Part shown: positions 38,860 through 55,263 of the stretch, one piece after another
Position numbering within the stretch: the first letter of the stretch is position 1
How the letters are laid out: each line of letters starts with the position of its first letter
Assembly (NCBI RefSeq): GCF_003991155.1
Contig: NZ_CP031293.1
DNA: 64,000 bases
Direction: 5' to 3' (one strand)
Source of the DNA: Escherichia coli
GTDB lineage: Bacteria; Pseudomonadota; Gammaproteobacteria; Enterobacterales; Enterobacteriaceae
Notes under the pieces: model-generated
Database searches by the model: none
What the model saw: only the letters and a program-made list of their open reading frames with translations
What the model was told of the DNA's origin: nothing
Translations under genes and position numbers: made by a program

Positions 38860-39050
38860 CGTTTGTGGGGCTAATTTCTTGTCGGAGTGCCTTAACTGGC
38901 TGAGACCGTTTATTCGGGATCCGCGGAACCTGATCAGGCTAATACCTGCGAAGGGAACAAGAGTTAATCTGCTATCGCATCGCCTTTGCGGCGATCGTCT
39001 CTTGCTTCATCCGTCGTCTGACAAGCCACGTCCTTAACTTTTTGGAATGA
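38860..39050 (+). promoter_or_regulatory. TPP riboswitch (THI element) in thiC leader
   Basis: Conserved THI-box elements CTGAGA and AACCTGATCAGGCTAATACCTGCGAAGGGAAC about 100-180 nt upstream of thiC ATG. Confidence 0.85.
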
Positions 39051-43288: not shown

Positions 43289-44418
43289 AAACCTTCAGCG
43301 ATCGCTGGCGACAACTGGACTGGGACGACATCCGCCTGCGTATCAACGGCAAAACGGCTGCTGACGTAGAGCGGGCGCTAAATGCCTCGCAACTCACCCG
43401 CGACGACATGATGGCATTGCTATCACCCGCCGCCAGTGGCTATCTGGAACCACTGGCCCAGCGAGCGCAGCGTCTGACCCGTCAGCGATTTGGCAACACA
43501 GTTAGTTTCTACGTCCCGCTTTATCTTTCCAATCTTTGCGCTAACGACTGCACGTACTGCGGATTTTCCATGAGCAATCGCATCAAGCGCAAAACACTGG
43601 ATGAAGCGGATATTGCCAGGGAAAGCGCCGCTATACGGGAGATGGGCTTTGAACATCTGCTTTTAGTCACTGGTGAACATCAGGCGAAAGTGGGGATGGA
43701 TTACTTTCGTCGTCATCTCCCTGCCCTGCGTGAACAGTTCTCTTCACTACAGATGGAAGTGCAACCGCTGGCGGAGGCGGAATATGCCGAGCTAAAACAG
43801 CTGGGTCTCGATGGCGTGATGGTTTATCAGGAGACATATCACGAGGCGACTTATGCCCGCCATCATCTGAAAGGCAAAAAACAGGACTTCTTCTGGCGGC
43901 TGGAAACGCCGGATCGGCTGGGCCGTGCGGGGATTGATAAGATAGGCCTCGGCGCGCTAATTGGCCTTTCCGACAGCTGGCGCGTTGACTGCTATATGGT
44001 TGCAGAACATTTGCTATGGCTGCAACAGCATTACTGGCAAAGCCGCTACTCTGTCTCCTTCCCACGCCTGCGTCCATGTACTGGCGGCATTGAGCCTGCG
44101 TCGATTATGGATGAACGCCAGTTAGTGCAAACCATCTGCGCCTTCCGGCTGCTTGCACCGGAGATTGAACTGTCACTCTCCACGCGGGAATCACCGTGGT
44201 TTCGCGATCGCGTGATTCCGCTGGCAATTAATAACGTCAGCGCTTTTTCGAAAACGCAGCCAGGTGGCTATGCCGACAATCACCCCGAGCTGGAACAGTT
44301 CTCACCACACGACGATCGCAGGCCGGAAGCGGTTGCTGCCGCGTTAACCGCTCAGGGTTTGCAGCCGGTATGGAAAGACTGGGACAGCTATCTGGGACGC
44401 GCCTCGCAAAGGCCATGA
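43285..44418 (+). CDS. thiH: 2-iminoacetate synthase (radical SAM tyrosine lyase)
   Basis: 377 aa; radical-SAM CNDCTYC motif; start overlaps thiG stop (ATGA). Confidence 0.9.
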
Positions 44419-44530
44419 GACAGAATGTAAGAACGTAAATTTATTCCGAGCCGCTACGGAAGATGAAAAACGCAAGGTTGTTGAAAGCGTTGTGTTTTTT
44501 TATGGTAGTGCCGTCAGCAGGAATGTTGTC

Positions 44531-44571
44531 CAGGGCGAAAAGCTTCTTCCTCGTTTCGCCCTGCCTTTCTT
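44531..44571 (+). terminator. Candidate terminator of thi operon
   Basis: Hairpin CAGGGCGAAA...TTTCGCCCTG followed by CCTTTCTT. Confidence 0.45.
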
Positions 44572-44735
44572 AAAATAACGTCTCAGTACGCTATTTCATG
44601 ATTGCCCGCAAAAATATTCATTAATATTTCTATTGTTTTAACAAAGAAGGCACAAGGCTTTAATTGCAAAGCAAGATCGCCGTCAAAACAAGAGTGTGCA
44701 ATAACCGGTTATAATAATTCCACCCTCACCAAAAT

Positions 44736-45386
44736 ATGGTCCAGAACATCATGTCAGCTTACCTAAAAAAAGCGTTATCGATTCATAGTGATGAATTTCG
44801 CCCATACGGAAACGTAATTTCTGCAATAAATGTAGATTCATTGCTTAAATACCTTAAAGAGGAAATTTCTGTACCTGAGGATCAGGTGGCATATGTCAGA
44901 AGCGATGAGCGCTTAAAGCAATACCCCGCCGTGAGCGACATTCAGCGCCAAATCTACGGTGGAATGCCCGTTCAGGCTGGGTACGTTTGTGGGGTAAATA
45001 CCACCCAGGATGGCTTTGAATATCACCAGGGAAGTGAAGTCATTATCGCCGCCAGCGATTTTTTCCTGTTTTTAGGTAAACGAGAGTTGATGCAGGGTGA
45101 CACGTTTAATGGTGAACGTGCAGAGCCGTTTTTCATTCCGGCAAAATCGGTGATTGAACTTTATAGCACAACGCTACATTACTGCCCTATGAGTATCAAT
45201 GCACAACCTTTTAGTGCAGCGATTATTCTTCTTGATGGAACTAATGAAGATATTGATGGCAAGAATAAACCAACAATATTAAGCAAGCGAAATACCTGGT
45301 TTATCGCCCATGAAAGTTTCACTGAGCATCCTTGCCCATTATTAAAAGGGCCGCATCTTTGCGTGAATGATATTATTCATGGGTGA
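44736..45386 (+). CDS. Cupin-fold protein of unknown function (accessory)
   Basis: 216 aa; cupin-like motifs (G..EYHQGSEV..., ...TTLHYCP...); AT-rich; alternative start ATG 44751 (MSAYLKK); no strong SD. Confidence 0.45.
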   Translation: MVQNIMSAYLKKALSIHSDEFRPYGNVISAINVDSLLKYLKEEISVPEDQVAYVRSDERLKQYPAVSDIQRQIYGGMPVQAGYVCGVNTTQDGFEYHQGSEVIIAASDFFLFLGKRELMQGDTFNGERAEPFFIPAKSVIELYSTTLHYCPMSINAQPFSAAIILLDGTNEDIDGKNKPTILSKRNTWFIAHESFTEHPCPLLKGPHLCVNDIIHG

Positions 45387-45390
45387 AAAT

Positions 45391-45410
45391 GGCGAAGATT
45401 TCTCTTCGCC
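45391..45410. terminator. Bidirectional hairpin terminator between convergent genes
   Basis: GGCGAAGA-tttc-TCTTCGCC perfect stem with T-rich flanks on both strands, between stops at 45386 and 45417. Confidence 0.5.
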
Positions 45411-45416
45411 TGTTCT

Positions 45417-48071
45417 TTACCCGGCAATTACCGCCACGCTGTCTTTTGTTCGCACGCGTGGTGGCATGGTCAGACCGCAGCGATCCCACTCATTCCCCTG
45501 CCATGCACTCGCAAAATAATAATGATTCGCTGCCGATGGGTAGACCACGACCGCCAGTTCATTACGCTTTTTTAGTAAAGACTGTGGCAAGGTGAAACGA
45601 TATTCCGGCCAGCCCTTTTCGGCAATTAACGTATCGTTAAGCCAGATAGCAACGCTTCCCTGCACTTGCGGTAAATAAAGCTCAATATCGTCGGTAATCG
45701 TCTCCAGCGCAAAGCGTAACTGATAATGTCCCGGACCACACCACGTCTCCATCCCCTGCTGCTCCCACCCTTTTGTTACCTCAACGGGTCGGGAAACGTT
45801 ATCAACCAGCAGTTGCCAGTGCTTATCCAGCACCACCTCGTGGCGACTTTCCACTACCTGCAATGAAAAGCAACGGGCCTGCCAGGGCTCGATTTGTAGC
45901 GGATAACTTCCCGTGAGATGCTCTTCCAGCACTGAAACCTCTCCCGTTGCAAGATGCCACTCCGACAACTGCCCACTGAGGCCCGGAAAATGTAGCCAGC
46001 CGTAGAGCGGGGTATCTCCGTCGTTAAATACGCTGACGTAACGCGATGTTTCATCCTGGGTAATTCGCGTCCAGACGGCAGTTTTCCGGGAGGGATAGTC
46101 AACAAAGGGGTGATCGTTTTTCAGCGTGTCGGCTAACGTGCTGCACTGCGGTTGCGCCTCAATCAGTTTTTGCAGCCTTTCGGTGAGAGAACGATCTTCA
46201 CCTTTTTCCTCGCTATATGCCGCAAGCTCGCCGGCGATCAGAAGCTGGCCACCAGCGGCGACAAAGTGCTCCAGTTGGCTCAGCGTGGCGGCTGATTTCA
46301 CCACCTTAACGTCCGCTAACAGAAGCGCAGGGAAATTCATGCCGTTAATGCGCGTTCCATCAGCCTGGAGCAAATTCTCTTCATCAATAAAGAAATATTC
46401 AAATCCCTGAGCGCTGAGTTGTTTTGCCCAATATTCGCCTGACTGCCCTTCGTTGCCATCCACGCCACAGTGCCAGAAAGTCCGTTTGGGATAGAGTACG
46501 CCAACATCAACGTACGGCTCTCCCTGCTCAAGAAATTCGGCAAGGCGACCAGATTCCTGAGCAAACCCAGCGTGGAAGGCGTACCAGGGCTGGAAGTTAA
46601 CGCCCGGCGCAAAATCAAAACGCGGGTTACTTAATACGTCGTCATTTGCCTCGCCATCCGTCAGCCAGAACGCGTGCATCAAAAATTGCCGCGCACCGAG
46701 GAGGTGATGGCGCAATGCCTGCAACCGGATGTCATGCAGTGAAATTTCCCACTGCCCGGCAGCAAAATGTGTGCATGGCTTCACCCGCGCATAATATTGC
46801 TCAACAATGCACCCTTTACGCCCATGAGCGCGCGCCACAGAGTCGCCAACCTTCGCCGCCATCTGCGGCTCGCTATTTCGCGAATCGACAGCCGTAATAT
46901 CCCGCCAGCCATCGAGAGCAAAGTAATCCATAGCAAAATTACACCGGTTATCTTCGGTGATGATTTTACTGGCGAAATTCCAGCTACTAACGTGACCTAA
47001 TACTTCATGACCACTTAGCTGTATTCCCCGCTGGTGCGCCCATTCTGACAACGTACCAAAAAAGGCCTGCATCGCCTGGCTGGAATAACAGGAAAGCAGC
47101 TCACAGCGCCGACGTGCGGTACGACTGCCAATGTCCATAACTAACGACATCAGGTTTTCTGCCAGGCAGTAAGGTGCCTGTTGCAATGCATCAACAAACC
47201 TTTTTTCATACATTAAGGAGGATTTGACCGCGCCAGTATGTTCATTCCATTGCCAGAAACAGGCGTGTGGCTGGTCGAAAAAGAGATACGCCACCGTCTT
47301 ACCAAAATGATCGCCAAAAGCGCGGGCGTAAGGTTCATAGCCGACACGAATAAAATTTTCTGCCGCTTCGGGCATCAGGTAATTAATCATCCGTGAGGTC
47401 AAGCAACGCGCCGCGGCAAAGAGCGTCACTACCGTTTCCGCACCCCAGGGCAGGTCGCTTCCCGTAAAGGTGACCTCAAATTCCTCTGTGGTTGCTTTGG
47501 TGATGCGGGCCAATGAAGAAACATCAACAATTTCATCTGCATTGCACTCCCCTGATGAAGAGGTGGCATACGCTGCGACAATTTCCCATTCATCCCACGC
47601 CGGTTTACCGCCAGCAAAAATCCACTCCATTCCACACTGCTGTAGCGCCTGCGCATCCGCAGAGCGGATCCCGGAAAGGTGACATGTCAGTACATCTGCA
47701 GACCGGCTGGACTGGCTCCAGAAAAGATGGCGCTCACGCAGCTCATCTCTCCCTTCAACGGTCCTTCCCCCGGCGTGCCCGGAAAGCCAGTTGTAATCAT
47801 CGTAGATGCCCATCATCAGCCCAATATTGGCAGCTTTATCAGCCGTGTAGCGACAGGCTGCCAGCCACTCCTCACTGAGATAACTCTCCAGCGGAAGACT
47901 CAGACGTGCGGCTATCTGAAATGAACCATACCCTCCCGCCTGCAGTTGCCTCAGTTGGCTGTCGATCTGCTTTTTGTCCGGAATGGTATGCCAGAACCAG
48001 TAGGTTGCAGGCAGGTGCCATACATCAGGATTTTTAAAGTTTTGGCGTGCCTGTGCTAACGAATCATTCAT
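45417..48071 (-). CDS. Large cytoplasmic hydrolase-like enzyme, probable glycoside hydrolase with C-terminal beta-sandwich; family unassigned (accessory)
   Basis: ORF 45417-48104; preferred start ATG 48071 (MNDSLAQARQNF) preceded by AAGGGGGA and overlapping upstream permease stop; 884 aa; no signal peptide; aromatic-rich N-terminal region. Confidence 0.55.
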   Translation of the reverse strand: MNDSLAQARQNFKNPDVWHLPATYWFWHTIPDKKQIDSQLRQLQAGGYGSFQIAARLSLPLESYLSEEWLAACRYTADKAANIGLMMGIYDDYNWLSGHAGGRTVEGRDELRERHLFWSQSSRSADVLTCHLSGIRSADAQALQQCGMEWIFAGGKPAWDEWEIVAAYATSSSGECNADEIVDVSSLARITKATTEEFEVTFTGSDLPWGAETVVTLFAAARCLTSRMINYLMPEAAENFIRVGYEPYARAFGDHFGKTVAYLFFDQPHACFWQWNEHTGAVKSSLMYEKRFVDALQQAPYCLAENLMSLVMDIGSRTARRRCELLSCYSSQAMQAFFGTLSEWAHQRGIQLSGHEVLGHVSSWNFASKIITEDNRCNFAMDYFALDGWRDITAVDSRNSEPQMAAKVGDSVARAHGRKGCIVEQYYARVKPCTHFAAGQWEISLHDIRLQALRHHLLGARQFLMHAFWLTDGEANDDVLSNPRFDFAPGVNFQPWYAFHAGFAQESGRLAEFLEQGEPYVDVGVLYPKRTFWHCGVDGNEGQSGEYWAKQLSAQGFEYFFIDEENLLQADGTRINGMNFPALLLADVKVVKSAATLSQLEHFVAAGGQLLIAGELAAYSEEKGEDRSLTERLQKLIEAQPQCSTLADTLKNDHPFVDYPSRKTAVWTRITQDETSRYVSVFNDGDTPLYGWLHFPGLSGQLSEWHLATGEVSVLEEHLTGSYPLQIEPWQARCFSLQVVESRHEVVLDKHWQLLVDNVSRPVEVTKGWEQQGMETWCGPGHYQLRFALETITDDIELYLPQVQGSVAIWLNDTLIAEKGWPEYRFTLPQSLLKKRNELAVVVYPSAANHYYFASAWQGNEWDRCGLTMPPRVRTKDSVAVIAG

Positions 48072-49563
48072 GGCTTTCCCCCTTCTTAATCGGCGGAACA
48101 TCACAATGACAAATGTATGTCAAAATGGCATACAGCGCCGCGCCCACCAGCATCGCCACCACTACGCCAATATTTGCTGTCGCAAACACGCTGGTTTTGG
48201 TTTCTGCCGTCAGTAAGAAGCCGACCAGGTGAGCAATCCACGGATCGCCTGAGGTGATGGTTCCCATGCCGATAACCGATGCAACAAACAGCGATAATAA
48301 TGCCGTCCAGCGACCGTTACGCCCGCCAAGCCCCGCGGGCTGCGCCATATCAGTGTTCCAGTGCAAGCGTTTTTGCCGGGCAAAGTCGACAAGCTGGATT
48401 GCGCCCATCGATCCCAATACGACGGATACCGTTGCCAGAAAAGACTGAAAGGTTGCGAGGAACGAGTCAGAAACAAACAATAAGTAGAAGGCACCGAATG
48501 CGATAATGACCGCATTGATAGCAGTGGTGGTTGAACGACTGGCTGGAACGCCCATTGCCAGCAATGCGAGGCCTGAGCTGTAAACACCTGTAATGGCTGC
48601 CGCCAGCAGGGAGATGATGATCACGATTGAAAACGGCACATAGAACCAAAACGGCAGGAACGAGGTTAAGGCCGCAATCGGTTCGGACGCTGCTGCTCCG
48701 CTCAGTTCCGGGTTACTGTCGGCCAGCAGGGCACCTAAAATCAGCAGGATGGAAACCGGAAGCGAAATCCCAAGCGACGTCCAGAAAATCACTTTCCCGG
48801 CAGCGGTTTTGCGCGGCAGGTAACGGGCGAAATCACCGCCATAGTTGAGAAAGCCCAGCCCAACCATCGTCATTGCCATCACCATGCCGCCGATAAACGT
48901 TAAAAATCCGGCATCGGGAGCAGCACCCGCCTGCGACCAGTGAATATGTGGCAGGATCAGGATAATAAAGATGATGCTCATTCCGCCCGTTAACCATGCA
49001 ATATACTTTTCTACCTTCATGATGAGCTGGTGGCCGTAGATGGCAACGGACATAGTCAATACTAAGGTCACCACGAACCAGCCCAACAGGCACCCTAAGG
49101 TAGGGTGACCGTTTTCTGCTGCAAATACGGTTGGCCATAACCGGGCAAAGAGGGCGGCGCCAGTGGTCGAGGACAACGTAATAATGGTGATTTTCCAGCC
49201 CATATTGGAAATATAGGCAAATAAAGTGGGGATCTTATTCCCATGATAACCAAAGGCAAATCGGGTCTGCGTTAAGGTAGGCAGCCCGGTGCGTGGCCCA
49301 CCAACGGCCAGAACCCCCACCAGCGTGCTGGATAAAAAATAGCCCACGACACCGGCAACAATCGCCTGCCAGAGGCTTAACCCCAGTGAGTAAACATAAA
49401 TCCCATAGGTAATACCGAGGATGGATACATTCCATGAAAACCAGATCGGGAAAAGTCCGGCAGGCGAACCATAACGTTCGTTATCACTAACCGGGTTTAC
49501 CCCATTGGTTTCCACCTTCATCGTACCTGAAACATCAGATGGGTTCTGGGCTTGGCTCGTCAT
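48064..49563 (-). CDS. NCS1-type (nucleobase/nucleoside/vitamin cation symporter-like) permease (accessory)
   Basis: ORF 48064-49755; preferred start ATG 49563 (MTSQAQNPSD) preceded by GAGAGGA; 499 aa, about 12 TM; N-terminal P..ER...F..WFS.N motif resembling NCS1 family. Confidence 0.55.
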   Translation of the reverse strand: MTSQAQNPSDVSGTMKVETNGVNPVSDNERYGSPAGLFPIWFSWNVSILGITYGIYVYSLGLSLWQAIVAGVVGYFLSSTLVGVLAVGGPRTGLPTLTQTRFAFGYHGNKIPTLFAYISNMGWKITIITLSSTTGAALFARLWPTVFAAENGHPTLGCLLGWFVVTLVLTMSVAIYGHQLIMKVEKYIAWLTGGMSIIFIILILPHIHWSQAGAAPDAGFLTFIGGMVMAMTMVGLGFLNYGGDFARYLPRKTAAGKVIFWTSLGISLPVSILLILGALLADSNPELSGAAASEPIAALTSFLPFWFYVPFSIVIIISLLAAAITGVYSSGLALLAMGVPASRSTTTAINAVIIAFGAFYLLFVSDSFLATFQSFLATVSVVLGSMGAIQLVDFARQKRLHWNTDMAQPAGLGGRNGRWTALLSLFVASVIGMGTITSGDPWIAHLVGFLLTAETKTSVFATANIGVVVAMLVGAALYAILTYICHCDVPPIKKGESHE

Positions 49564-49564
49564 T

Positions 49565-50782
49565 TTATTTCCTCTCATATTGAGCAAGACGTGATAGTAC
49601 GGCTTCATACTCAGGCATGTTCGATGCGCCTTCCCGCTCGACCGCCAGAGAAGCAAACGCAGAGGCAAATTTTGCTGCACTGAGCAACGGCTGGCCCTGC
49701 GCAATCGCCGCAGCAAACGCACCGTTAAACGCATCCCCCGCACCGGTGGTGTCAATACTTACTGCTTTTAACGCTGGAATATGGGTAAATTGTTCACCGT
49801 CATAAATCAGCGCCCCTTGAGAACCCATCGTAATAATGATGTTTTTTGCCCCCAGGGATTTTATGGTTTGCGCCGCTTCTTTCGCACTCTCGATATCATT
49901 AATCTCGACACCGGACATCAGCGACGCTTCTGTTTCATTCGGTGTCAGATAATCAACATATTGCAGGCATTCTTTTGCCTGGTCAGAATAAGGGGCTGGG
50001 TTAAGGATAGTTTTCACGCCCGACCGATGTGCCATATTTAGTGCCAGCGTGGTTGCTTCAAAGTTATTTTCCAACTGTGTCAAAAATATTTTGGCGTCCG
50101 TCAACTCACCCGCAATACTGGCAACTTCCGCTTCAGTGATATATTGATTGGCGCCAGAATAAATCGCGATCTTGTTTTCACCAGCAGGCTCCGAAACATA
50201 TATTATGGCGCTTCCTGTTTTATGCTCTTCGTCCTGGTAGAGGGTAAAGCTGCGGATATCGGATGAAGAGAGATGATCATGCGCCATCTGGCCGAAATGG
50301 TCGTTGCCAACTTTGCCGACGAAGTGTACCTGGACGGGACATTTGCTGGCTGCCATCGCCTGGTTTGCGCCCTTGCCGCCAGGTCCAATGATGGTATTGC
50401 TGGCAAGAATTGATTCGCCGCTTTTAGGGAAGCGATCAACTTTGGCAATAATATCGACATTAAAAGATCCTAATATACAAACTTTGCTTATCATTATTTT
50501 CCCTTTTTTGTTTGTCATCGAGTTTTTTCGCCAGTTGACCTGATTGAGGAACTTTTCAATAGAGGTACCAACGTTATTAACGGGCTGAGAATGGAAAATC
50601 CGACGCAATATTATTGCTCCGCCGTGACAACGCTCAACACCCCCTTGCTCCGCTAATAAATTTAAATCATTACGGATCGTTTCTTTACTGACAGAGAATA
50701 AGATGGCGAGTTGATTAACCGTAGCCCGCTCATGTTTATTCAAATATGCCAATATTTGACGTTGTCTTTCTTTCCCAAACAT
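49565..50782 (-). CDS. Fusion protein: N-terminal DeoR-type HTH domain + PfkB-family ribokinase-like sugar kinase (accessory)
   Basis: 405 aa; N-terminal RQILAYLNKHERATVNQLAILFSVSKETIRNDL (DeoR HTH); kinase motifs GPGGKGANQA, NPAP, TPNETEA and DTTGAGDAFNGA collinear with RbsK; SD GAGGTGA before ATG 50782. Confidence 0.7.
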   Translation of the reverse strand: MFGKERQRQILAYLNKHERATVNQLAILFSVSKETIRNDLNLLAEQGGVERCHGGAIILRRIFHSQPVNNVGTSIEKFLNQVNWRKNSMTNKKGKIMISKVCILGSFNVDIIAKVDRFPKSGESILASNTIIGPGGKGANQAMAASKCPVQVHFVGKVGNDHFGQMAHDHLSSSDIRSFTLYQDEEHKTGSAIIYVSEPAGENKIAIYSGANQYITEAEVASIAGELTDAKIFLTQLENNFEATTLALNMAHRSGVKTILNPAPYSDQAKECLQYVDYLTPNETEASLMSGVEINDIESAKEAAQTIKSLGAKNIIITMGSQGALIYDGEQFTHIPALKAVSIDTTGAGDAFNGAFAAAIAQGQPLLSAAKFASAFASLAVEREGASNMPEYEAVLSRLAQYERK

Positions 50783-50985
50783 GATTTCACCTCACGTAAC
50801 ATTTATATCTTTTGTAATTTTCTGATTCCATGAATCCTTTCACACTACCATCACGAAAACAAAAACAAACGGGAATTTTTGGAGGAAAGGTTTTTTTATT
50901 CAATGGGATAGTGAGAGGGGAATGTTGTTTTGAAAAAACACTCCCGAAAAATGCGTGGGAAAGCGCTTTCAATCGTAAACGGAAT

Positions 50986-51020
50986 GCAAAAAAAAGCCAG
51001 TCAGTGTGACCTGACTGGCT
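50986..51020 (-). terminator. Rho-independent terminator of rpoC
   Basis: Minus-strand hairpin GCCAGTCAGGTCACACTGACTGGC followed by TTTTTTTT. Confidence 0.8.
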
Positions 51021-51039
51021 TATTTCTTAAGAAGAGCGA

Positions 51040-54000
51040 TTACTCGTTATCAGAACCGCCCAGACCTGCGTTCAGCAGTTCTGCCAGGCTGGCAGATGCG
51101 TCTTCTGCAGTCACCTGCGGTGCAGCCGGAGCTTCACCCGCAGCACGGCGACGCATACGATCCTGGTGGTACGCGTAACCGGTACCTGCCGGGATCAGAC
51201 GACCCACGATAACGTTCTCTTTCAGGCCGCGCAGTTCGTCGCGTTTGCCCGCAACGGCTGCTTCGGTCAGCACGCGAGTGGTCTCCTGGAACGATGCCGC
51301 GGAGATGAAGGACTCGGTTGCCAGAGACGCTTTGGTGATACCCAGCAGATCGCGGGAGTAAGTTGCACCCACTTTGCCGTTCGCTTCCAGTTCGCGGTTT
51401 GCGATCTTGACGCGAGAGTATTCAACCTGTTCACCTTCCAGGAAGTCGGAGCTGCCCGCGTTAACGATGGTAGCTTTACGCAGCATCTGACGAACGATAA
51501 CTTCGATGTGTTTATCGTTAATCTTAACGCCCTGCAGACGGTATACGTCCTGTACTTCGTTAACGATGTAACGAGTCACAGCATGAACACCACGCAGACG
51601 CAGAATGTCGTGCGGCGCTTCCGGACCGTCGGAAATTACGTCACCACGTTCTACACGTTCACCTTCGAACACGTTGAGTTGACGCCATTTCGGAATCATC
51701 TCTTCGTACGGATCGCTACCGTCTACCGGGGTGATAACCAGACGACGTTTACCTTTGGTTTCTTTACCGAAGGAAACGATACCGCTGATTTCAGCCAGGA
51801 TTGCCGGCTCTTTCGGACGACGTGCTTCGAACAGGTCCGCAACGCGCGGCAGACCACCGGTGATGTCCTTGGTACCGCCGGATTCCTGCGGAATACGCGC
51901 CAGGGTGTCACCAGAGCTGATCTGTACGCCATCTTCCAGCTGAACAATCGCTTTACCCGGCAGGAAGTACTGCGCAGGCATATCGGTACCCGGGATCAGA
52001 ACATCGTTACCCTGAGCATCAACGATTTTCAGCGCCGGACGCAGATCTTTACCACCTGCGGTACGTTCTGCGGAATCCAGAACCACCAGCGAAGACAGAC
52101 CGGTCAATTCGTCGGTCTGACGAGTAATGGTCTGGCCGTCGATCATGTCAGTAAAGCGTACAAAACCGCTTACTTCGGTGATAACCGGCATGGTGTGCGG
52201 GTCCCAGTTTGCAACGGTTTCGCCGCCAGCAACCTGTTCGCCATCGCCTTTCGCCAGTACCGCACCGTAAGGTACTTTGTAGCTTTCTTTGGTACGACCG
52301 AATTCGTCGATCAGTTTCAGTTCGGTGTTACGGGAAGTGATAACCAGTTTACCGCTGGAGTTCACAACCGACTTCACGTTGCTGAGCTTGATGCTACCTT
52401 TGTTTTTCACCTGGATGCTGGATTCAGCAGCCGCACGAGATGCCGCACCACCGATGTGGAACGTACGCATGGTCAGCTGTGTACCCGGTTCACCGATGGA
52501 CTGTGCCGCGATAACACCGATTGCTTCACCTTTGTTGATGAGGTGGCCACGCGCCAGGTCACGACCGTAGCAGTGCGCACATACACCAAAGTCGGTGTCA
52601 CAAGATACAACAGAACGTACTTTAACCGCGTCGACAGAGTTCTCTTCCAGCAGGTCACACCACTGTTCGTGCAGCAGCGTGTTGCGCGGAACGAGGATAT
52701 CAGCAGTACCCGGCTTCAGAACGTCTTCAGCAGTTACACGACCCAATACGCGATCGCGCAGCGGCTCTTTAACGTCACCACCCTCGATAACCGGAGTCAT
52801 CATGATACCTTCATGGGTACCACAATCGTCTTCGGTAACCACCAGGTCCTGCGCCACGTCAACCAGACGACGAGTCAGGTAACCGGAGTTCGCAGTTTTC
52901 AGTGCGGTATCCGCCAGACCTTTACGAGCACCGTGGGTGGAGATGAAGTACTGGAGTACGTTCAGACCTTCACGGAAGTTCGCGGTGATTGGCGTTTCGA
53001 TGATGGAGCCATCCGGCTTCGCCATCAGACCACGCATACCAGCAAGCTGACGAATCTGTGCCGCAGAACCACGCGCACCGGAGTCGGCCATCATGTAGAT
53101 GCTGTTGAAGGAAACCTGCTTCTCTTCCTGACCGTCACGGTTAATAACGGTTTCAGTTTGCAGGTTATCCATCATCGCTTTGGATACACGATCGTTCGCC
53201 GCAGCCCAGATATCGATAACTTTGTTGTAGCGTTCGCCCGCAGTTACCAGACCAGACTGGAACTGCTCCTGAATTTCAGCAACTTCTGCTTCTGCCTCGG
53301 AGATGATTTCGTGTTTCTTCTCCGGGATGACCATGTCATCGATACCAACAGATGCACCAGAACGCGCTGCATAGGCGAAGCCGGTGTACATGATCTGGTC
53401 CGCAAAAATAACGGTCGGTTTCAGACCGAGAATGCGGTAGCAGGTGTTCAGCATTTTGGAGATTGCTTTCTTACCCAGCGCCTGGTTGACGATGGAGTAA
53501 GGCAGACCTTTCGGTACAATCATCCACAGAATGGCACGGCCAACGGTCGTATCTTTCAGGCTGGTTTTCGCTACTAATTCACCGTTAGCATCTTTTTCAT
53601 ACTCGGTGATACGCACTTTAACGCGCGCATGCAGAGAAGCCAGACCAGAGCGATACAGACGTTCTGCTTCTTTCGGGCCAGTCAGCACCATGCCTTCGCC
53701 TTTGGCGTTAACACAGTCGCGGGTCATGTAGTACAGACCCAGTACAACGTCCTGAGACGGAACGATGATTGGTTCGCCGTTCGCCGGGGACAGGATGTTG
53801 TTGGTAGACATCATCAGCGCACGCGCTTCCAGCTGGGCTTCCAGCGTCAGCGGTACGTGAACAGCCATCTGGTCACCATCGAAGTCGGCGTTATATGCCG
53901 CACAAACCAGCGGGTGCAGCTGGATAGCTTTACCTTCGATCAGTACCGGTTCAAATGCCTGGATACCCAGACGGTGCAGAGTCGGTGCACGGTTCAGCAG

Positions 54001-55263
54001 TACCGGGTGTTCGCGGATAACTTCGTCCAGGATATCCCAAACGACAGCTTCTTCGCGCTCAACCATTTTCTTCGCAGCTTTAATGGTGGTAGCAAGACCA
54101 CGCAGTTCCAGCTTGCCGTAGATGAACGGTTTGAACAGTTCCAGTGCCATTTTCTTCGGCAGACCGCACTGATGCAGACGCAGGTATGGACCTACGGTGA
54201 TTACAGAACGACCGGAGTAGTCAACACGCTTACCGAGCAGGTTCTGACGGAAACGACCCTGTTTACCTTTGATCATGTCGGCCAAAGATTTCAGAGGACG
54301 CTTGTTAGAACCAGTGATCGCACGACCGCGACGACCGTTATCCAGCAGGGCGTCTACCGCTTCCTGCAGCATACGTTTTTCGTTACGTACGATGATATCT
54401 GGCGCAGCCAGATCCAGCAGACGTTTCAGACGGTTGTTACGGTTAATGACGCGACGATACAGATCGTTCAGGTCAGAAGTCGCGAAACGACCACCATCCA
54501 GCGGAACCAGCGGACGCAGATCTGGCGGCAGTACCGGCAGAACGGTCAGGATCATCCACTCTGGTTTGTTACCAGACTGAACGAACGCTTCCAGCAGTTT
54601 GATACGCTTGGTCAGCTTTTTACGCTTGGTTTCGGAGTTGGTTTCGTTCAGCTCTTCACGCAGCTGTTCGCACTCTTGCTCCAGATCCATGCTCTTCAGC
54701 AGGGCCTGGATTGCTTCCGCACCCATCTTCGCGTCGAATTCGTCACCGAACTCTTCCAGCGCGTCCAGATACTGCTCTTCAGTCAGGATCTGCTGACGCT
54801 CCAGGTTGGTCATACCGCCTTCGATAACCACATAGGATTCGAAGTACAGTACGCGTTCGATATCGCGCAGCGGCATATCGAGCAGCAGGCCGATACGGGA
54901 CGGCAGCGATTTCAGGAACCAGATGTGCGCAGTCGGGGAAGCCAGTTCGATGTGGCCCATACGCTCACGGCGTACTTTAGTCTGGGTCACTTCAACACCG
55001 CACTTCTCACAGATGACGCCACGGTGTTTCAGGCGCTTGTACTTACCGCACAGGCACTCGTAATCTTTTACCGGCCCAAAGATACGGGCGCAGAAAAGGC
55101 CGTCACGTTCTGGTTTGAACGTACGGTAGTTGATGGTTTCCGGCTTTTTAACTTCACCGAAAGACCATGAACGGATCATGTCTGGCGAAGCCAGAGCAAT
55201 TTTGATCGCATCAAACTCTTCGGTTTTAGTCTGCGCTTTCAGAAACTTTAATAAATCTTTCAC
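51040..55263 (-). CDS. rpoC: DNA-directed RNA polymerase subunit beta'
   Basis: 1407 aa; [64 protein letters not shown]. Confidence 0.98.

Follow-up and report, generated by a model that had tools for sequence, protein, structure and literature searches.

The subject of this report is a small gene located between thiH and rpoC in a 64,000-nt window of the Escherichia coli contig NZ_CP031293.1 (assembly GCF_003991155.1). By every feature testable here, its product is a member of the DUF4867 family (PF16161 / IPR032358), and it is already known in kind, since RefSeq already carries it under the name 'DUF4867 family protein' and a 2025 survey (PMC11968277) includes the E. coli IAI39 protein, A0A0H3MWE6, among the family members in its supplement. 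The overall explanation that we favor, and in which we place about as much belief as doubt, is that this cupin metalloprotein is the product of a functional gene and the accessory fourth member of a horizontally acquired island for the utilization of a glycoside, most likely a riboside. The gene is placed as follows.

44751..45386, + strand: DUF4867-family cupin gene, 211 amino acids (aa); maximal open reading frame (ORF) from 44736, 216 aa; predicted metal ligands E90, H92, E96 and H143

PF16161 was the single strong Pfam match of the ORF, scoring 183.1 bits against a gathering cutoff of 28.7 (E 5.9e-54) and spanning residues 15-196 of the protein and positions 3-186 of the 201 in the profile. 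NCBIfam returned no meaningful match, the sole one being psbA at E 0.004 and 15.9 bits against a cutoff of 596. A sequence search of the PDB identified 9GYY/9GYZ, a 'DUF4867 domain-containing protein' from Bacillus megaterium (E 7.4e-34), and 9GYY was also the best Foldseek match of the predicted structure (E 1e-17, template modeling (TM) score 0.73). As modeled, the protein has the double-stranded beta-helix of the cupin superfamily, a beta-barrel fold like that of this solved member.

A first-pass annotation of the window had pointed to two cupin-like motifs, EYHQGSE and LHYCP, and both proved to contain exactly the metal ligands of the 9GYY type. In a pairwise alignment, FEYHQGSE and LHYCP of the ORF correspond to GLEYHKSSE and LHFAP of 9GYY (SqvB), a dimeric cupin in which a metal, modeled as Fe, is held by Glu97, His99, Glu103 and His150 (PMC11968277). 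These four ligands align to the invariant Glu, His, Glu and His of the ORF: in the 211-aa numbering, E90, H92, E96 and H143 were conserved in all 12 homologs compared, down to 35% identity. Motif conservation of this kind predicts that a 2His-2Glu metal site is present. The C-terminal 40 residues were modeled with low confidence (predicted local distance difference test (pLDDT) below 50) and are missing in the Serratia homologs.

The length of the product needed correction. The first-pass annotation had described a 216-aa ORF, and a frame with an ATG start is indeed present at 44736..45386 (+); the conserved start, however, is ATG 44751, giving 211 aa. In a four-taxon alignment, ATG 44751 was invariant in E. 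coli, E. whittamii, Escherichia sp. MOD1 and Salmonella, whereas ATG 44736 was not kept in E. whittamii or Salmonella, so the product most likely has 211 aa. RefSeq also places the start at 44751.

The gene lies, as first proposed, at the thiH-proximal edge of an island and is convergent on the last gene of a three-gene operon, from which it is separated by 30 bp.

44576..51036, unstranded: island of 6.46 kb between thiH and rpoC, replacing about 1.0 kb of K-12 DNA with sroH and yjaZ
45417..48071, - strand: GH106-like glycoside hydrolase (GH) candidate, 884 aa, cytoplasmic; a Shine-Dalgarno (SD) sequence lies ahead of ATG 48071
48064..49563, - strand: NCS1-family (purine-cytosine) permease (PF02133, E 3e-27; TIGR00800)
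49565..50782, - strand: fusion of a DeoR-type helix-turn-helix (HTH) domain and a ribokinase-like PfkB domain, 405 aa; first gene of the operon (PF08220 and PF00294)

A functional link between the DUF4867 gene and this operon, suggested in the first pass, is supported by co-directional four-gene operons of the Serratia type. In two such loci the order is DeoR-PfkB > NCS1 > 897/899-aa protein > DUF4867, with all genes on one strand; the DUF4867 start lies 12 bp past the hydrolase stop with a good SD in one locus, and in the other the two genes overlap by 4 bp. The convergent arrangement of the four genes was found at the same site in E. coli, an E. albertii-like lineage, E. whittamii, Escherichia sp. 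and Salmonella, and their adjacency has been maintained across Escherichia species and Salmonella at synonymous divergences (dS) of 0.25-0.6. Locus L098 has the same four genes at the same site, with a DUF4867 ortholog 82% identical to that of the window. In a neighbor-joining tree of 89 sequences, the Escherichia/Salmonella and Serratia clades of DUF4867 grouped in 83 of 100 bootstraps; because these enterobacterial clades group, the tree suggests a single recruitment of DUF4867 followed by an inversion in Escherichia/Salmonella. No inverted repeats of at least 8 bp flank the gene that could have caused such an inversion.

The co-occurrence analysis proposed in the first pass gave a divided answer. 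The linkage holds in Escherichia, Salmonella and the Serratia-type loci, but the module also occurs without DUF4867, and within E. coli the association is clonal: among 5,426 complete genomes, 49 contained the DUF4867 gene and 49 the operon, with all 49 matches at 99% identity or above. The E. coli island is therefore rare and a single clonal island, so the co-occurrence in 49 of 49 genomes is not independent evidence. The linkage is well supported but not universal, and the gene is an accessory one.

In E. coli, E. whittamii, Escherichia sp. and Salmonella the ORF had the same length and was uninterrupted. The ratio of nonsynonymous to synonymous substitution rates (dN/dS) was 0.17-0.22 for DUF4867, as compared to 0.09-0.12 for the hydrolase, 0.03-0.05 for the permease and 0.05 for the kinase gene. 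The DUF4867 gene is thus under purifying selection, with the weakest constraint of the four island genes. By these two measures, an intact frame in all orthologs and the dN/dS range, the ORF is a real gene. A 70-aa GTG ORF at 45383-45595 (+) begins within the DUF4867 stop codon and lies antisense to the 3' end of the hydrolase gene; RefSeq does not annotate this ORF, which is most likely spurious.

In base composition the gene stands apart from its neighbors, as had been noted. Its GC content is 0.423 and its GC content at third codon positions (GC3) is 0.387, while the corresponding GC/GC3 values are 0.528/0.553 for the hydrolase, 0.525/0.594 for the permease and 0.460/0.456 for the kinase gene, and the whole window has a GC content of 0.525. 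The Salmonella ortholog shows the same GC offset. The absence of an obvious SD was likewise borne out: no purine-rich SD precedes ATG 44736 or ATG 44751 (the bases 5' of the latter are ...ggtccagaacatc), whereas the other three island genes have clear ones, namely GGGGGA, GAGGAA and GAGGTG.

Two conserved elements, one on each side of the gene, may bear on its expression.

44658..44715, + strand: conserved upstream stretch, with the element CTTTAATTGCAAAGCAAG at 44658-44675 (18 bp) and a TATAAT box at 44710-44715
45391..45410, unstranded: hairpin in the 30-bp convergent gap, with a perfect 8-bp stem and a 4-nt loop (GGCGAAGA-TTTC-TCTTCGCC)

The CTTTAATTGCAAAGCAAG element was unchanged from E. 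coli through E. whittamii and Escherichia sp. to Salmonella, and the intergenic DNA flanking it has diverged, with indels. The stretch 44658..44715 may serve the DUF4867 gene as promoter or operator, and the element itself is a candidate regulatory site for which no binding factor is known. A consensus promoter scan returned no + strand site upstream of the gene, and an Rfam scan of 44300-45600 at E<=1 gave no match. The search for an operator common to the upstream regions of DUF4867 and the operon yielded two 10-mers only, one of them a T-run; both are trivial and sit in the portion of the thiH-DUF4867 spacer that is common to K-12, so they provide no evidence of co-regulation.

The bidirectional hairpin with an 8-bp stem described in the first pass is present and stable on either strand, although only the + strand passes a terminator scan. 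The + strand folded at -13.1 kcal/mol (z -4.5) and the - strand at -14.0 kcal/mol (z -5.5), and 0 of 200 shuffles folded equally well. The pattern occurs once in the window, against a chance expectation of 0, and the same stem sequence is present in E. whittamii, Escherichia sp. MOD1 and Salmonella. Each strand has a modest T-run, TGTTCTTT on the + and ATTTTC on the - strand, and the scan accepted the + strand (TGTTCTTTAC) but not the - strand (ATTTTCACCC). These features suggest that the hairpin is likely a shared bidirectional terminator of the convergent genes.

The partner genes give the island its probable purpose. The 884-aa protein had no Pfam or NCBIfam match, and its AlphaFold2 model (pLDDT 91.7) was closest by Foldseek to the GH106 alpha-L-rhamnosidases 6Q2F (E 1e-40) and BT_0986, at 13-14% identity, followed by GH42. 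It has 437 homologs, mostly actinobacterial hypothetical proteins (Streptomyces, Bifidobacterium and other Actinobacteria), and nothing signal-peptide-like was seen at its N-terminus. From its model, the protein looks like a member of an uncharacterized GH106-related family. The permease stop overlaps the hydrolase start by 8 bp, and the three operon genes are tightly packed. The kinase scored 313.5 bits against the TIGR02152 ribokinase cutoff of 299.65, and the K-12 RbsK positions N14, D16, G41, G42, K43, N46, E143 and D255, which we take to be the ribose contacts of structure 1RKD, were invariant in the kinase alignment. The 405-aa fusion could act as a combined regulator and enzyme. Taken together, the operon suggests that a small glycoside is taken up and hydrolyzed in the cytoplasm, and that a ribose-like sugar is then phosphorylated.

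Two further observations concern the module itself. The DeoR-ribokinase fusion is kept whether the island is of the Escherichia, the Salmonella or the Serratia form. A PfkB kinase, an NCS1 permease and a GH106-like protein form a conserved trio not only in Enterobacterales but as far away as Bifidobacterium and Streptomyces; in these two genera a separate LacI regulator takes the place of the fused DeoR domain. When the E. coli and Bifidobacterium proteins are compared, the permeases share 63.5% identity, the hydrolases 42% and the kinases 30%, which suggests either inter-phylum transfer or a very strong constraint on the transporter.

Within the explanation that we favor, the NCS1 permease would import a small glycoside, which the cytoplasmic GH106-like enzyme would cleave; the ribokinase-like domain of the fusion would phosphorylate the freed sugar, and its HTH domain would regulate the operon. 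The DUF4867 protein, with a metal bound by Glu90, His92, Glu96 and His143 within the beta-barrel, would interconvert ring, anomeric or aldose-ketose forms of the freed sugar and thereby provide the right species for the kinase or downstream metabolism. In Escherichia and Salmonella its gene, inverted with respect to the operon, would be transcribed alone toward the shared hairpin terminator. The reaction itself, a metal-dependent interconversion of sugar forms that acts on the product of the GH106-like enzyme and feeds the kinase, is a tentative proposal and in our view more apt to be wrong than right. Family membership, fold, conserved ligands, purifying selection and the link with the module are established, whereas substrate, reaction and co-regulation are inferred. 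The sugar acted on is probably ribose, because the kinase passes the TIGR02152 cutoff and keeps the RbsK ribose-contact residues, and because riboside-carrying NCS1 transporters exist, such as yeast Nrt1 and Fui1.

A role in sugar-form interconversion is proposed because DUF4867 relatives sit in sugar clusters, both in our own sampling and in the published survey (PMC11968277). Among the loci that we sampled, the one of Tolumonas holds RpiB, an Rpe-like gene, a phosphotransferase system (PTS) and GH3; that of Paenibacillus, DUF7916 and a PTS; and that of Selenomonas, the series RbsD, LacI, MFS, DUF4867 and PfkB. In one Clostridiales locus DUF4867 is followed by PfkB. The survey found family neighborhoods rich in sugar isomerases, FGGY kinases and GH1 or other glycosidases, together with ten FGGY-kinase fusions, and proposed a mutarotase or ring-isomerase role in ketose metabolism; in its supplement, Collinsella DUF4867 genes adjoin PfkB and an inosine-uridine (IU) nucleoside hydrolase (PMC11968277).

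In its most specific form, this explanation would make the four genes an undescribed cytoplasmic pathway for a riboside or ribofuranoside: NCS1 import, release of D-ribose by a new GH106-related family, phosphorylation and sensing by the fusion, and isomerization of the ribose ring or anomer by DUF4867. We consider this full version unlikely, although if true it would assign the first activity to the DUF4867 family, and would do so in the genetically tractable E. coli.

Several observations weigh against the favored explanation. Some of them would equally suit a DUF4867 gene that is an unrelated passenger beside the operon with no functional link to it, a possibility that we rate as unlikely. 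In E. coli the gene lies on the strand opposite the operon, differs from it in GC and GC3, lacks an SD and has an upstream region of its own, with no motif common to it and that of the operon; it is the least constrained of the four genes, and its co-occurrence with the operon in E. coli goes back to one clone. The module is also widespread without it: Bifidobacterium and Streptomyces carry PfkB, LacI, NCS1 and a GH-like gene but no DUF4867, and another enterobacterial thiH-rpoC island combines the three genes with a PTS and GH4, again without DUF4867. The DUF4867 protein is therefore dispensable for the core pathway. Most DUF4867 genes, in turn, stand in other contexts. A GTDB-wide DUF4867 scan that considered neighbors within 10 kb listed 80 loci, 78 of them non-Escherichia; a GH106-like or NCS1 gene was present in 0 of these 78, and among the 80 loci listed DUF4867 adjoins the three-gene module in Escherichia only. 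The association is thus lineage-restricted and offers no family-wide functional clue. What argues against a mere passenger is the tight co-directional operon of the Serratia type, in which DUF4867 is translationally coupled to the hydrolase gene, the sister relationship of the two enterobacterial DUF4867 clades (83% bootstrap) and the adjacency retained over the Escherichia species and Salmonella despite their divergence (dS as given above).

Other points bear on the proposed chemistry. RbsD occurs together with DUF4867 and PfkB in the Selenomonas locus, so DUF4867 is not simply an RbsD replacement, and a role as RbsD substitute is weakened. The only published assays on the family, with SftX and SqvB, detected neither mutarotase nor kinase activity, and sulfoquinovose and sulfofructose caused no thermal shift (PMC11968277). 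The same study reported unexplained ligand density at the metal after a sulfofructose soak and concluded that DUF4867 is accessory in sulfoglycolysis clusters as well (PMC11968277).

The protein might instead act on the aglycone or on a nitrogenous product, as a lyase or hydrolase like AllA, which we find a shade less probable than an unlinked gene. Such a role would fit the N-heterocycle substrates of NCS1 permeases, which carry allantoin, hydantoins and nucleobases. An N-terminal F-x-x-YG-x-vI motif is aligned by hhalign, and AllA-type ureidoglycolate lyases have been named the closest characterized relatives of the family (PMC11968277). The hhalign probability, however, was 11% and the alignment covered an 18-column N-terminal motif only, there was no PF04115 match, and the family-wide neighbors are sugar genes rather than nitrogen-catabolic ones. 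Membership of the AllA family was rejected on the first and second of these grounds.

That the gene is a decaying or poorly expressed remnant without current function is, in our estimate, quite improbable. The lack of an SD and of a consensus promoter would be in keeping with it, as would the highest dN/dS among the island genes and a C-terminal segment of 40 residues with pLDDT <50 that Serratia homologs do not have. Decay is contradicted by a full-length ORF that is intact in every ortholog examined, by a dN/dS range that denotes purifying selection, by the invariance of all four metal ligands and by the conservation of the upstream element and start codon.

Finally, the first-pass annotation had allowed that the ORF could be a divergent HtrC/YjaZ, to which we now give practically no credence: the position of yjaZ between thiH and rpoC in K-12 alone speaks for it, but BLASTP against K-12 YjaZ (b3989) gave a best E of 3.2 over 7 residues, tblastn was not significant, the ORF and yjaZ are on opposite strands once both thiH-rpoC intervals are put in the same orientation, the island replaces the sroH/yjaZ segment with sharp breakpoints, and the ORF matches DUF4867 strongly instead. 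Orthology to YjaZ is thereby refuted, and with the cupin fold present in the predicted structure, both refutation tests set in the first pass come out on the side of the cupin reading.

The insertion site is well delimited. On the + strand the window holds nudC and rsd followed by the thiCEFSGH genes, the last of which ends at 44418, and rpoC occupies 51040-55263 (-). A blastn comparison of the K-12 thiH-rpoC interval, which contains yjaZ and the small RNA gene sroH, with the window placed the homology breakpoints at 44575 and 51037. No yjaZ or sroH DNA was found anywhere in the window, nor any YjaZ-like translation. In the interval RefSeq annotates, besides the DUF4867 gene (+), an 884-aa 'hypothetical protein', a 'purine-cytosine permease family protein' and 'rbsK: ribokinase', all three on the - strand. 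The same sequence is present, identical, in strain 2016C-3878 and others.

With the K-12 segment exchanged for the island, sroH and yjaZ/htrC are both missing at thiH-rpoC from the 49 E. coli genomes that carry the island. This gap is variable in general: other enterobacterial contigs hold there a cellobiose-type PTS, GH4, GntR and SIS genes, with or without DUF4867. At the far end of the island, just downstream of rpoC, a strong hairpin with a T-run at 50988-51021 (-) (GCCAGTCAG-GTCACA-CTGACTGGC then TTTTTTTT) sits in island DNA without similarity to K-12; from its position, the island apparently brings its own rpoC terminator. Upstream of thiC, RefSeq annotates a thiamine pyrophosphate (TPP) riboswitch at about 38873-38973 (+), as expected for the thiCEFSGH operon.

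DUF4867 is a family with a solved structure and a function still to be assigned, since the 2025 study reported a metal and ligand density but no activity (PMC11968277). The compact four-gene island of E. coli and Salmonella provides a tractable genetic system in which the substrate of the GH106-like protein, and then the role of the cupin, could be determined, and the Serratia-type variant with DUF4867 translationally coupled to the hydrolase gene adds to this context. It also documents thiH-rpoC as a variable insertion site, with yjaZ and sroH lost in these strains. As a sequence feature the DUF4867 gene is ordinary, and its value is modest, lying in its genetic context and in the uncharacterized GH106-related family. 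A literature search on the GH106-like/NCS1/ribokinase module or on later SftX work returned nothing relevant beyond PMC11968277 and PMC7491151.

Among known systems, YjaZ/HtrC of K-12 shares with the gene its chromosomal position between thiH and rpoC only; there is no sequence similarity, the strand is opposite, and yjaZ has been deleted and replaced in this strain. AllA (PF04115; 1YQC, 2BDR) is likewise a small cupin with a similar N-terminal strand motif, but the two show no significant match, and the context here is sugar rather than allantoin catabolism. The cupin sugar isomerases, such as archaeal phosphoglucose isomerase (1J3P, 1X7N), are metal-dependent and set a precedent for aldose-ketose chemistry in this fold; they differ from the protein in sequence (8-13% identity) and structure (TM 0.32-0.36), with no evidence of orthology. 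In cupin phosphoglucose isomerase the metal is bound by three His and one Glu, as compared to the predicted Glu/His/Glu/His site here. The RbsD/FucU pyranases and mutarotases resemble the protein in proposed role rather than by homology: as small accessory proteins whose genes stand with those for a sugar transporter and a kinase, they accelerate ring or anomer interconversion feeding the kinase, and a similar role is proposed for DUF4867 both in the survey (PMC11968277) and here. Their fold and sequence are unrelated, RbsD needs no metal, and a jackhmmer search with K-12 RbsD found no homologous ORF in the island loci, which excludes the gene from that family.

The closest known counterparts are the DUF4867 proteins of sulfoquinovose-degradation clusters, SqvB (also SqvD) of B. 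megaterium and SftX of Eubacterium rectale. The differences lie mainly in the surroundings: no sulfoglycolysis genes are found here, the partners being a GH106-like protein, an NCS1 permease and a DeoR-ribokinase fusion; the host is proteobacterial; there is a C-terminal tail of 20-25 residues with low predicted confidence; and in Escherichia and Salmonella the gene is convergent to its partners. The main text of the 2025 survey names no neighborhood of this composition (PMC11968277). In the protein itself the likeness is close, with the same Pfam family, 32-34% identity (E 7e-34 to 9GYY) and the same two Glu and two His ligands, and in each case it is encoded by a non-essential accessory gene that adjoins a glycosidase, a transporter and sugar-processing enzymes.

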